Of a stretch of 64,000 bases of DNA, positions 35,730 to 41,851 are shown in pieces. The notes under the pieces were generated by a model. That model ran no database searches. It was not told the DNA's origin and saw nothing but the letters and a program-made list of their open reading frames with translations. Source of the DNA: Escherichia coli (lineage in GTDB: Bacteria; Pseudomonadota; Gammaproteobacteria; Enterobacterales; Enterobacteriaceae); NCBI RefSeq assembly GCF_003334405.1, contig NZ_QOWM01000014.1; one strand, written 5' to 3'. Every line of letters begins with the position of its first letter. Within the stretch, counting starts at the first letter, position 1. A program made the position numbers and the translations under genes.

Positions 35730-36404
35730 TCACCTGTATAACCAGTACGCGGTGCTTTCTACATTCGCACCACTTTGTATGTATCGTTTAAGCGCGGCGG
35801 TGTTGCCCATTTGGGTCGCCACCCGCAAAGTTGTTTTACCGCGAGCATACGCCCAGTTTAGCGCCGTTTGCATCAGCTCAGCACCTGCACCGCGTCCAGC
35901 CAGCAGGCCAATTCGCGCATCTGTCGCATTGAGTTCCCGTAAAGAGACATAGCCGCGAATATCGCCGGACGCCGCACGTAAAATCAGACATTGATGATCA
36001 AAGGTGCCGCGCACGGCATTTTCAATCCACTGTGCATAAAAGCGACTGCTGGCGTCAGGCGCATACCACGGCGCACGAAAACGGCTTTGCGCAAATGCGG
36101 CGCTGGCTAACTGACGTAATGCGGGAATATCGGTCTCTTGTGCCACTACAGCACCGCTATCACTGGCATTGTTCACGGGTAGCGCCAAATCAACTTCACC
36201 TTCTACCAGGGAGAATCCCAGCTGTTGCAGGGCATCCAGTTCACCCGTATTTGATGCCGCAATTTTGGCCTGCACCCGTGACCACGGCGCTAACGCGTCT
36301 GGCGTCAGGAGCGGTGCTTCAGACGTAATGCGCACGATGGCGCTGTTAACACCAAAGAAGGCGTTTTCCCAGGTTAGTGGCTCAATACTGGCGCGGACGG
36401 GCAC
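35730..36404 (-). CDS. wecD: dTDP-fucosamine acetyltransferase
   Basis: 224-aa ORF with GNAT-like C-terminus; recognised WecD; the longest ORF overlaps rffH by 23 bp, so the true start may be an internal codon. Confidence 0.8.
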
Positions 36405-37263
36405 GAAGTAACTCCAGCAGATATTGGCCGTAGCCAGTTTTCGCTAATGAACTGGCAGCACGCTTCACACCCTCGTCATCGAGCCAGCCGTTACGCCAGG
36501 CAATCTCTTCCAGGCAGGCAATCTTAAAGCCCTGGCGTTTTTCCACCGTCTGTACAAAGGTGCTGGCTTCAATCAGGCTGTCGTGAGTGCCGGTATCCAG
36601 CCAGGCAAATCCGCGCCCGAGCAGTTCAACGGTCAGGTTGCCCGCCTCGAGGTACATCTGGTTGATGGAGGTAATCTCCAGTTCACCACGCTCCGACGGC
36701 TTCACCTGCTTTGCGTACTCCACGACTTTACTGTCGTAGAAATAAAGCCCGGTCACCGCCCAGTTTGACTTCGGCTGTTTTGGCTTTTCTTCCAGCGAGA
36801 TAGCGCGGAAATTGTCGTCAAACTCCACCACGCCAAAGCGTTCCGGGTCCATCACCTGATAGCCAAAAACCGTCGCCCCTTCGGTGCGCGCCGCAACATG
36901 ACGCAGCTTCGGACTGAAGCCCTGACCGAAGAAGATGTTATCGCCCAGCACCAGACAAGAAGGTTCACCATTAAGGAAGGTTTCACCGATGATAAAGGCC
37001 TGCGCCAGACCGTCCGGGCTGGGCTGTTCGGCATATTCCAGCTGGATACCGAACTCACTACCATCGCCCAGCAGGCGCTGGAAATAACCTTTATCTTCCG
37101 GCGTAGTGATGATGAGAATTTCGCGGATACCGGCCAGCATCAGCACCGACAGCGGATAGTAAATCATTGGCTTATCGTAAATCGGCAACAGTTGCTTCGA
37201 TACGCCGCGCGTAATCGGATGCAATCGGGTGCCGGAACCGCCCGCCAGGATAATACCTTTCAT
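36382..37263 (-). CDS. rffH: glucose-1-phosphate thymidylyltransferase 2
   Basis: 293-aa [21 protein letters not shown]...; recognised RffH. Confidence 0.9.
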
Positions 37264-38349: not shown

Positions 38350-39611
38350 CAGCGCCAGACTCCTTTGGCATCGACGACATACTGCTGATGGACATTGTCG
38401 CCATTGATAACTTTGAACTGACTATGATCGACCAGCATCACCAGCACGTCTGCCGTTGCCAGCGCCTCGTCAAGCTGCGCCAGAGTACAAAGCCCGGTCA
38501 GTTTTTTCGGCAACTGGTGGATGTTAGGCTCAACAACCAGAGTTTCGCCGCTATGCCACTGGGCGATCAGTTCAGCGATTTCCATCGCCGGGCTTTCGCG
38601 CAGGTCATCAATATTCGGTTTAAACGCCAGACCAAAGCAGGCGATTTTCAGTTCACTGGCGCGTTTATCGGTAGCCGCCAGGCAATCAGCCACCGCCGCT
38701 TTCACCTGATCGATAACCCAGAACGGTTTGTGATCGTTCACTTCGCGCGCGGTACGGATAAGCCGCGCCTGCTGGGGGTTCTGTGCCACGATAAACCACG
38801 GATCAACAGCAATGCAGTGACCGCCCACGCCAGGGCCAGGCTGAAGAATATTAACGCGAGGGTGACGATTCGCCAGGCGAATCAGTTCCCAGACGTTAAT
38901 CCCCTGATCGGCACAAATCAGCGACAATTCATTAGCAAAAGCGATATTCACATCGCGGAAGCTGTTTTCGGTGAGCTTACACATTTCCGCCGTCCGCGAG
39001 TTAGTGACGACACACTCACCTTCGAGGAAAATTTTGTACAGTTCGCTGGCGCGGGCCGAACAAACCGGCGTCATACCACCAATCACGCGATCGTTTTTAA
39101 TCAGCTCGACCATTACCTGTCCTGGTAACACGCGTTCCGGGCAGTAAGCAATGTTGACGTCCGCCTGCTCGCCCACCTGCTGCGGGAAAGTGAGATCCGG
39201 ACGCATCTCTGCTAACCATTCTGCCATCTTCTCGGTTGACCCCACCGGCGAGGTGGATTCAAGGATCACCAGCGCGCCTTTTTTCAGCACTGGCGCAATG
39301 GAGCGAGCAGCCGATTCAACGTAGGTCATATCTGGCTCATGATCGCCCTTAAACGGCGTGGGTACAGCAATCAGCCAGGCATCCGCTTCAACTGGCGTCG
39401 TGCTCGCTCGTAAAAAACCGCCTTCTACGGCAGTTTTTACTACACTCGCCAAATCAGGTTCGACGATATGGATTTCGCCACGATTGATGGTATCAACCGC
39501 ATGTTGGTTGATATCGACACCAATTACCTGTTTTTGCCGTGAGGCAAACGCTGCTGCCGTTGGCAGCCCGATATAACCCAGTCCGATAACAGAAATGGTC
39601 GCAAAACTCAT
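38349..39611 (-). CDS. wecC: UDP-N-acetyl-D-mannosamine dehydrogenase
   Basis: 420-aa [24 protein letters not shown]...; recognised WecC. Confidence 0.9.
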
Positions 39612-40738
39612 AGTGATATCCGATTATTTTTTAACGCTTCCAGAATGCGAGAGCATGCCTGACCATCACCATACGGGTTATGGGCGCGGCTCATAGCTTG
39701 ATATTCGTTTTCGTCTTTTAAAAGACGCGTCACTTCCTCGACAATTCGCTGCTTATCCGTGCCTACCAGACGCACCGTACCCGCCGTCACCGCTTCCGGA
39801 CGCTCAGTGGTATCGCGCATCACCAGCACAGGTTTCCCCAGCGAAGGCGCTTCTTCCTGAATGCCGCCTGAGTCGGTCAAAATCAGCCAGGCGTGGTTCA
39901 TCAGCCAGACAAACGGTAAATACTCCTGGGGATCGATCAGAATGACATTTTTCACATGCCCCAGAATGCGATTGACCGGCTCTCTGACGTTCGGGTTGAG
40001 ATGCACCGGATAGACAATCTGGATGTCCTGGTGCGTGGTGGCGATGTCTGCCAGCGCGTGGCAGATTTCTTCAAAGCCACGACCGAAACTCTCACGCCTG
40101 TGACCGGTCACCAGAATCATCTTTTTATCGGGGTCGATAAACGGGTAATTTGCCGCCAGTTCTGAACGCAGCTTGTCGCTGCTCATCACCTGGTCACGCA
40201 CCCATAACAGTGCATCAATGACTGTATTACCGGTAATGAAGATTCGGCTATCCGCAACGTTTTCACGCAGCAAGTTTTGCCGGGAAGTTTCGGTTGGAGA
40301 GAAGTGATACATCGCCAGATGCCCGGTCAATGTACGGTTAGCCTCTTCCGGCCACGGCGAATAGAGATCGCCCGTGCGCAGACCAGCCTCAACGTGACCA
40401 ACAGGAATACGCTGATAAAACGCCGCCAGGCTGGTTGCCAGCGTCGTCGTCGTATCGCCGTGAACCAGCACGACGTCTGGTTTGAACTCGGCAAGAATAG
40501 GTTTTAGCCCTTCCAGAATCCGACAGGTTATCTCTGTCAGGCCCTGTCCTGGCTGCATTATGTTGAGATCGTAGTCAGGTACAATGGAAAAGAGTTTCAG
40601 CACCTGATCGAGCATCTCCCGATGCTGCGCAGTGACGCAAACTTTAGCCTCAAAAAAAGGATCTTTTGCCAACGCATGCACCAACGGCGCCATCTTGATG
40701 GCTTCCGGGCGCGTACCAAATACAGTCAGTACTTTCAC
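39608..40738 (-). CDS. wecB: UDP-N-acetylglucosamine 2-epimerase
   Basis: Track ORF 39608..40780; the recognised 376-aa WecB starts at the in-frame GTG ([16 protein letters not shown]). Confidence 0.88.
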
Positions 40739-40793
40739 ATCGATTCTCTTCGAATAAGCGGCGAGCGCCTTTGCGCTCACCGCAGCAGTGTTG

Positions 40794-41840
40794 CTATTTC
40801 GAGCAACGGCGGGTTAATGCGACACCAGCCCCGATCAGCCCCCCGACAATGCCCCACATAATCATCAGGAAGGCACGACGTGGGCTATCGCGTTTTACCG
40901 GTTCTTCCGGCGTACGCAAATAGCGATAGGTCTGAAAACGCGGATCCAGGGTTGGACCAACATTCAGGGTGTTTAACATGGCCCGATTCTGATCATAGTC
41001 GAGATCAAAGGCCGGACCGACGGCCTGTAAATTTTCCAGTCGAGCCTGAAGCATTGGACGCCCAAGCAGGAACATTTCTGAATCAGGTAATTCCTCGGCA
41101 GGTACATCTGTCGCACTGCGCGAAATATTATGCTGCTCAGCAATTTTCAGCGCCTGCTCAATGCTGTTCATCCGGCGGTCGTAGATGGCTTTCGCCACCT
41201 CTTCCTGACGCTTCACCTGAGCTTTCATCTGGATGGTACGCGCCGCCCATGCGCCTTTCAGCTCATCATTCAGATGGCTGGCTGCACGCTGGCTGGCAAA
41301 AGCAACATACTGACGTAACAGGTTATTAGCGTCAGGCGCGGTTTCGGCAATAAGCTTCACGCTGTCATTGACCGCGCGGGTAAAGTCTCCGGGGATAAAC
41401 TGGATGTTGTTAATCATTTCATCCAGCAACGCCGCATCGGCTTTGCTGTTGCCCACCATCCGCTGTTTGTAATAGTCGGTTTGCAGCCAGAACTCTCTGC
41501 GGGTATCCCACGAGGCCAGTTGCATAACAAACTCTTTATAGGCTTCGTCCATGACCGATGGTTGGTCGGCAGAAGCCATGTTTGAACGGACATCCAGGTT
41601 ACGCAAAAATTGCTGCTGCGAGTAATATCCCCCCAGCATATTCACCGTTGGACGATCGGTAATCGCCGTCGAGCTCCACTCCTGACGAGCAAAAAACGTA
41701 TACGCCAGCGCGATTAACGCAAACGCCAGCCCCATGCCAATAATCCATAGCTTCCCAGCCCACAAGGTACGAAACAACCCACGAATATCCAGTTCATTTT
41801 CAGCGTCTTCGGCCGGTTTCCCAGGCATTGGTTGTGTCAT
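40794..41840 (-). CDS. wzzE: ECA polysaccharide chain-length modulator
   Basis: Recognised 348-aa WzzE ([18 protein letters not shown]...); start at the ATG just after the track's alternative GTG. Confidence 0.9.
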
Positions 41841-41851
41841 CACATCCTCAT

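Follow-up and report, generated by a model that had tools for sequence, protein, structure and literature searches.

The acetyltransferase WecD is almost certainly translated from a GTG codon at position 36404 that lies 23 nt inside the upstream gene rffH. [quoted passage not shown] Positions are those of the window, i.e., the whole 64,000-nt stretch of Escherichia coli DNA that was analysed (contig NZ_QOWM01000014.1). A sequence-only reading of the window had raised the question of whether WecD starts at an internal codon. The question of a mis-called start is legitimate and was a real annotation issue, now resolved. An internal start is not borne out, as both the start codon and the SD ahead of it are conserved, and synonymous sites of rffH are frozen around them; it is also contradicted by the finding of the same aligned start behind different upstream genes and by the drift of the internal GTG codons. 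The overlap and the 224-aa start are already known and are correctly annotated. The same start and overlap are found in RefSeq and in K-12 MG1655, where rffH is at 3973608..3974489 and rffC at 3974467..3975141.

Gene identities and locus layout

The wecD gene (also rffC), for dTDP-4-amino-4,6-dideoxy-D-galactose (dTDP-fucosamine) acetyltransferase, is a minus strand open reading frame at 35730..36404 that runs from GTG to TGA and has 224 codons for amino acids. The rffH gene (rmlA2), for glucose-1-phosphate thymidylyltransferase 2, is at 36382..37263 on the minus strand, runs from ATG to TGA and encodes 293 aa; in RefSeq it is annotated as rfbA/rffH. Both genes belong to the ECA (wec/rff) cluster, which has the order wecA-wzzE-wecB-wecC-rffG-rffH-wecD-wecE-wzxE-wecF-wzyE-wecG on the minus strand of the window, with wecD upstream of the aminotransferase gene wecE. 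The 11 junctions of this 12-gene cluster have spacings of +11, +55, -4, -1, +18, -23, +4, +1, -4, -4 and +2 nt. The description of most junctions as overlaps or gaps of 1 to 4 bp thus fits 7 of the 11, where the spacing is within 4 nt, but not the three junctions with gaps of 11-55 nt.

WecD scores 357.6 bits with the NCBIfam equivalog NF008212 (cutoff 219), residues 1-224 corresponding to positions 1-231 of the 232 in the profile. Residues 2-224 differ by two substitutions from the crystallised E. coli WecD (2FS5_A; PDB 2FS5/2FT0), and PF00583 is found on WecD homologues. By score, coverage, identity and gene position, the product can be assigned as a dTDP-fucosamine acetyltransferase of the NF008212 type. 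The function of E. coli WecD given in the literature is the acetyl-CoA-dependent acetylation of dTDP-Fuc4N (reviewed in PMC7439462). RffH scores 534.3 bits with TIGR01207 (rmlA; cutoff 360.65), with coverage limited to residues 2-286. PDB 1MC3 matches residues 1-293, and RmlA paralogues align only up to residue 286-287. The last seven codons of rffH, which encode the tail RARPRQY, lie beyond the core of the RmlA family.

In E. coli K-12 the corresponding genes are rffH (b3789) and rffC=wecD (b3790), with the same 224-aa product, GTG start and 23-nt overlap. Nothing of substance differs from the window, which represents another E. coli strain. A segment of 1,101 bp across the junction is present in all of the complete E. 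coli genomes searched (5,426/5,426) and is 100% identical to that of NZ_CP025842.1.

The overlap and the wecD initiation site

The 23-bp overlap described in the sequence-only reading is confirmed: both open reading frames are on the minus strand and have positions 36382..36404 in common. Read directly from the sequence, the 23-nt dual-coding overlap at 36382..36404 (minus strand) is GTGCCCGTCCGCGCCAGTATTGA. The rffH frame reads the last 2 nt of the Arg287 codon, then six codons for ARPRQY and finally the TGA stop; the wecD frame reads codons 1-7 (M-P-V-R-A-S-I) and 2 nt of codon 8 (E). An open frame of eight codons is insignificant by itself, and it is the conservation of this frame that is above chance. 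More than 80% of overlapping gene pairs have less than 30 bp in common (PMC12548453), thus an overlap of 23 nt is within the ordinary range.

The WecD initiation codon is the GTG at 36402..36404 (minus strand), whose G and T are the second and third bases of the RffH Arg287 codon, CGT. The use of GTG in place of ATG follows from the overlap, since the first G of the start codon is also the middle base of Arg287. This GTG is the first ATG, GTG or TTG codon past an in-frame TAG at 36444..36446, and 224 aa is therefore the longest form of WecD, as had been stated. Some gene callers begin the protein at an in-frame ATG further upstream (codon -9), for a length of 233-234 aa. This ATG was rejected as a start: it arises only if Tyr278 of rffH is encoded by TAT and not TAC, and in the window codon -9 of the wecD frame is ACG.

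The SD sequence GGAG is at 36412..36415 (minus strand; -11 to -8), inside rffH codons Leu283-Glu284, with a spacer of 7 nt between it and the GTG. A GTG codon with a 4-nt SD makes an initiation site of modest quality. At the other end of the overlap is the rffH TGA stop (36382..36384, minus strand). Its T closes WecD codon 7 (Ile, ATT), and its G and A open codon 8 (Glu, GAG), so that the sequence ATT GAG of these two codons contains the TGA and sets where rffH ends.

Comparison of junctions between genomes

The comparison set consists of the best 80 related loci from contigs representing one genome per species, with WecD identities of 64-94%, which together with the window gives 81 junctions. 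All 80 comparison genomes are Enterobacteriaceae-like, and just one more distant rffH-wecD junction (L090) was examined in addition. In 47 of the 81 junctions rffH is upstream of wecD. Every one of these (47/47) has an overlap of exactly 23 nt with the wecD start at an identical position, the start codon being GTG in 46 of them and ATG in one. GGA at -11 to -9 shows no variation in the 47 genomes, and this includes the synonymous third base of Leu283. The rffH stop has the same position in all 47 and is TGA, or TAA in three genomes. The mean column entropy in these junctions is 0.17 bits in the overlap, compared with 0.53 bits in the flank that is rffH only and 0.94 bits in the flank that is wecD only. 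The check that had been proposed, i.e., conservation of the overlapped codons across species, thus shows them to be strongly conserved. In L090, where the identity of WecD is only 53%, the overlap is again 23 nt and nearly identical in sequence (GTGTCCGTCCGCGCCAGTATTGA). The overlap is ancient.

In the other 34 of the 81 junctions rffH is absent or decayed, and these serve as natural controls. In them wecC overlaps the first 4 nt of wecD (GTGA or TTGA) or is separated from it by a spacer of 9-78 nt, rffG is directly upstream (L015), or a 3′ remnant of rffH is present (L028, L030, L041, L045). In all controls (34/34) WecD starts at the aligned codon, with offsets between -5 and +1 codons. Many of the controls have an in-frame stop 3-7 codons upstream, or have no other start-type codon among the first 30 codons. 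ATG is found at the aligned start in 13 of the 30 junctions that are without any rffH sequence.

WecD also starts at the aligned codon, again with offsets between -5 and +1 codons, in five more distant loci, where the upstream sequence is wecC, rffG, a rffG/rffH remnant or an ABC-like gene. L082 retains the rffG/rffH remnant together with GGAG and GTG, and in L084, L085, L087 and L088 WecD begins at the aligned codon behind other genes. Orthologues align from WecD residue 1, with A5, L10, W12 and E13 invariant. When the best 150 representatives of clusters formed at 50% identity are compared, with identities down to ~31%, most full-length proteins start within about a dozen residues of residue 1 of the query.

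Selection in both reading frames

Sites of rffH were analysed in 46 clean rffH genes, in which four-fold degenerate sites are nearly saturated (1.34 bits). Degenerate third positions that are invariant number 4 of 11 in codons 283-293, as opposed to 2 of 272 elsewhere in the gene (Fisher p=1.8e-5). The four frozen sites are the G of the SD (in Leu283), the T of the GTG (in Arg287) and the second bases of WecD Ala5 (in Arg291) and Ile7 (in Tyr293). The T of the wecD start codon is a four-fold synonymous site in rffH and shows no variation. Only translation of the wecD frame from this GTG explains this pattern of frozen sites.

The reciprocal pattern is found in wecD. In WecD codons 2-7 the third position is invariant in 6 of 6 codons, as opposed to 1 of 67 downstream (p=4e-8). 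Where rffH is missing, the same third positions vary normally (1.45 bits, compared with 0.00 where rffH is present). As they are frozen only in the presence of rffH, the RffH tail RARPRQY must itself be constrained. The variation that is left in the overlap is found only at positions that are third in rffH codons and second in WecD codons. As a result, WecD residue 2 is P, L, H, R or F, residue 3 is V or A, residue 4 is R, H or L, and residue 6 is S or N. These patterns of substitution indicate that the 23 nt truly encode parts of both proteins, with purifying selection acting in both frames, and it is this selection that keeps the overlap frozen and fixed at 23 nt.

The internal GTG codons and the annotation history of WecD

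Long overlaps between genes are recognised as pointing to mis-called starts. If WecD started at an internal GTG, the overlap with rffH would be an artefact of choosing the longest open reading frame. Two such codons are present in the window in frame with wecD: Val24 at 36333..36335 (minus strand), which would give a 201-aa form, and Val44 at 36273..36275 (minus strand), which would give a 181-aa form and is an older annotated start. The 181-aa form is found in older GenBank records, among them AAG58985.1 (Z5301, EDL933) and AAN45301.2 (Shigella flexneri), and the old TIGR02382 model is limited in its coverage to WecD residues 44-224. The 181-aa RffC of EDL933 and TIGR02382 represent the same locus and are the alternative that the sequence-only reading had suspected. 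The 201-aa form is seen only in automated metagenome gene calls.

However, neither internal GTG has an SD, and both were rejected as starts. Codon 24 is a start-type codon in 42 of the 81 junctions, with GTT, GTC, GTA, CTG and GCG among the alternatives in the 47 junctions with rffH upstream; codon 44 is of start type in 55 of 81, with synonymous GTA and GTT elsewhere. Codons 24 and 44 drift as ordinary Val codons do, mostly by synonymous change. Against an internal start are also the synonymous sites of rffH frozen by the wecD frame and the sequence preceding these codons, as codons 1-43 are conserved at the protein level with normal drift at third positions. The features expected of a longest-ORF artefact are thus not displayed: codons 1-43 are protein-conserved, the start and SD are invariant, and the excess of frozen rffH sites is significant (p=1.8e-5). 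From the frozen sites, the conserved codons and the invariant start and SD it follows that the overlap is no annotation artefact.

The short form has also been abandoned by current reference annotations. The 181-aa RffC is contradicted by comparative and structural evidence and is superseded by NF008212 and by the RefSeq protein of 224 aa, which is also the form in UniProt. An internal start as the true start of WecD is thus highly improbable.

The N-terminus of WecD

An AlphaFold2 model of WecD, built with a 14-sequence alignment, has a mean pLDDT of 88.7, with a mean of 92 over residues 1-10. In it an α/β unit at the N-terminus precedes a GNAT-like core. The predicted elements of the N-terminal domain include a β-strand at residues 4-9, a helix at 11-17 and a strand at 21-26, and residues 4-9 are confidently predicted to be the first β-strand of this domain. 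An internal start would delete all three elements. It should be noted that the crystal structure is no proof of the native start, since the protein in PDB 2FS5/2FT0 comes from a cloned 224-aa construct, with residues 2-224 behind an N-terminal extension of 12 residues.

Start-site data

A second possibility that involves the internal codons is that two isoforms of WecD are made: a full-length protein that begins at the overlapping GTG, and a shorter protein that begins at an internal codon and has an incomplete N-terminal domain. Internal starts that give second isoforms are known in E. coli, as is described in a Ribo-RET preprint (10.1101/520783), and codon 44 is GTG in the majority of the junctions given above. 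But codon 44 is without an SD and is not conserved, and the INRI-seq table of alternative starts, which includes the Ribo-RET peaks of Meydan et al., has no in-frame internal wecD start within +135 nt. A pair of isoforms is therefore given as small a chance as an internal start alone.

Near the wecD start, Table S3 of the INRI-seq work (PMC9825163) has only a weak out-of-frame CTG peak (6.6) at -13. This CTG corresponds to about 36415..36417 of the window, 13 nt upstream of the wecD GTG, and lies in the rffH frame. The peak may stem from the initiation complex at the wecD start itself, with its footprint placed imprecisely, or it may be noise. The supplements of the TRAINSPOTTER, TetRP and Salmonella riboproteogenomics papers have no entry for wecD/rffC, and literature searches that combined wecD/rffC with the start codon or with rffH brought up no work on where WecD starts. 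In Salmonella, a σ54 (RpoN) site within wecD, TGGCGCGGAAATTGCACA, has been reported (PMC3844500). The σ54 core TGGC-N7-TTGCA has no match with one mismatch or fewer within wecD of the window (35730..36404).

Initiation of wecD and coupling to rffH

Initiation at wecD would be directed by the GGAG sequence, itself within rffH, 7 nt ahead of the GTG. The positions of the start and SD and the selection in two frames come directly from the comparison of junctions; how ribosomes reach the start, we infer. They may do so by either of two routes. By the first, 30S subunits would bind in the ordinary SD-directed manner between the ribosomes that translate rffH. By the second, ribosomes that end at the rffH stop, 20 nt downstream of the start, would move back and re-initiate at the GTG. 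A ribosome that terminates at the rffH TGA would have its P site ~17 nt downstream of the GTG; by an estimate from the ribosome footprint, the wecD start would then be at its trailing edge and the SD just behind.

Models of coupling by unfolding and by scanning are reviewed in PMC12548453. No stable local RNA structure is predicted at the junction, where the minimum free energy is -36.6 kcal/mol compared with a mean of -36.9 for shuffled sequences (z=0.09); thus coupling by unfolding is without support. Lineages that keep only the ~77-nt remnant of rffH, with SD and start, suggest that SD-directed initiation would be sufficient. These lineages and the absent sequestering structure may be taken as two indirect hints against a strict dependence of wecD on the translation of rffH.

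The two genes have the arrangement expected of a coupled overlapping pair: they are co-directional and in one operon, the wecD start is upstream of the rffH stop and the wecD SD is in rffH. Overlaps of co-directional genes by -4 nt (NTGA) and -1 nt (TGATG) have been linked to translational coupling (PMC6728339, PMC12548453), and the ECA operon itself has junctions of both types. The rffH-wecD junction is like these in being a co-directional operon pair with a start near the upstream stop and an SD embedded in the upstream gene. It is unlike them in that the wecD start is 20 nt upstream of the rffH stop and does not overlap it. Consequently seven codons are dual-coding, and a ribosome that re-initiates would have to move backwards. 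Only spacings of -4, -1 and -8 are enriched according to the review (PMC12548453).

A further, speculative proposal is that the overlap is no mere tolerated accident and that the strictly conserved RffH tail RARPRQY came from the reading of rffH through into the 5′ codons of wecD, i.e., by overprinting, and became functional later. The fixed geometry of SD, 7 nt, GTG, 20 nt and stop would then be a selected device for re-initiation by back-scanning that ties the output of WecD to the translation of RffH. This is considered unlikely. Such a selected coupling role for the RffH tail and the invariant spacing would be the one mildly novel aspect of this junction.

The extreme nucleotide conservation of the overlap could also be read as a sign of recoding, e.g., by a +1 shift of ribosomes close to the rffH stop, with an RffH-WecD fusion enzyme as the product. 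RffH and WecD share a 90% protein cluster, perhaps because some assemblies contain the two open reading frames fused. However, dual coding fully explains the conservation, since only third positions of rffH codons vary. Reading by eye shows no motif at TAT TGA G that is known to be slippery or prone to shifts, no RNA structure is predicted at the junction, and WecD is found without rffH in many genomes. A fusion enzyme made by recoding is thus hardly credible, and the preferred reading remains two separate proteins with a dual-coding junction. As to the protein cluster itself, it was formed at 90% identity and has 6,944 members; it holds both the 224-aa WecD and the 293-aa RffH ("RfbA"), with RffH as representative, and the two proteins are unrelated in sequence. 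It is likely an artefact of clustering or assembly, or results from bridging by fused or frameshifted open reading frames across the overlap.

Implications

The choice of the wecD start is a matter of annotation hygiene and little beyond. A truncated WecD persists in the old 181-aa records and in TIGR02382. The locus also shows how sequence comparison, in place of experiments, can validate a start that lies within an upstream gene, by means of frozen synonymous sites in that gene and of genomes lacking rffGH, which act as natural "deletion mutants" and serve as controls. It further shows why a weak GTG start can be forced by an overlapping frame. For the construction of mutants, it should be noted that the last ~35 nt of rffH hold the wecD ribosome-binding site and first seven codons, thus a clean deletion of rffH must spare them.

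Additional observations on ECA loci

Two other genes of the cluster in the window have a longest open reading frame that differs from the RefSeq gene. For wecB the longest frame is 39608..40780 (minus strand, 390 aa, GTG start) and the RefSeq start is at ~40738 (376 aa); for wzzE it is 40794..41843 (minus strand, 349 aa, GTG start) and the RefSeq start is at ~41840 (348 aa). Of these wecB especially is a second place in the ECA operon where the longest frame is not the annotated one.

Across Enterobacteriaceae the rffG-rffH pair is either present in or absent from the ECA cluster. The wecC gene is directly upstream of wecD in L005, L011, L016, L019, L034, L056 and others. Deletion scars are seen in L028, L030 and L045 (around 1420-1500), where a ~77-nt 3′ remnant of rffH carries the wecD SD and start, and in L082 (2248-2500), which has a 48-aa rffG stub. 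L015 has lost rffH alone and keeps rffG. These arrangements point to repeated loss of the ECA-specific RmlA/RmlB paralogues across lineages.

In L008 (Citrobacter koseri NCTC10786), the rffH sequence upstream of position 1523 has 11 stops in the expected frame with the 23-nt junction intact, and is either a pseudogene or an assembly error. Two records have labels that are at odds with their ECA loci, both of which are of the Enterobacteriaceae type. These are L063 (CACSKA010000013.1), recorded as "Chryseobacterium sp. 18061" and with an RffH 94% identical to that of E. coli, and L080 (JAGTSE010000012.1), recorded as "Proteobacteria bacterium". Both are probably cases of mislabelling or contamination.
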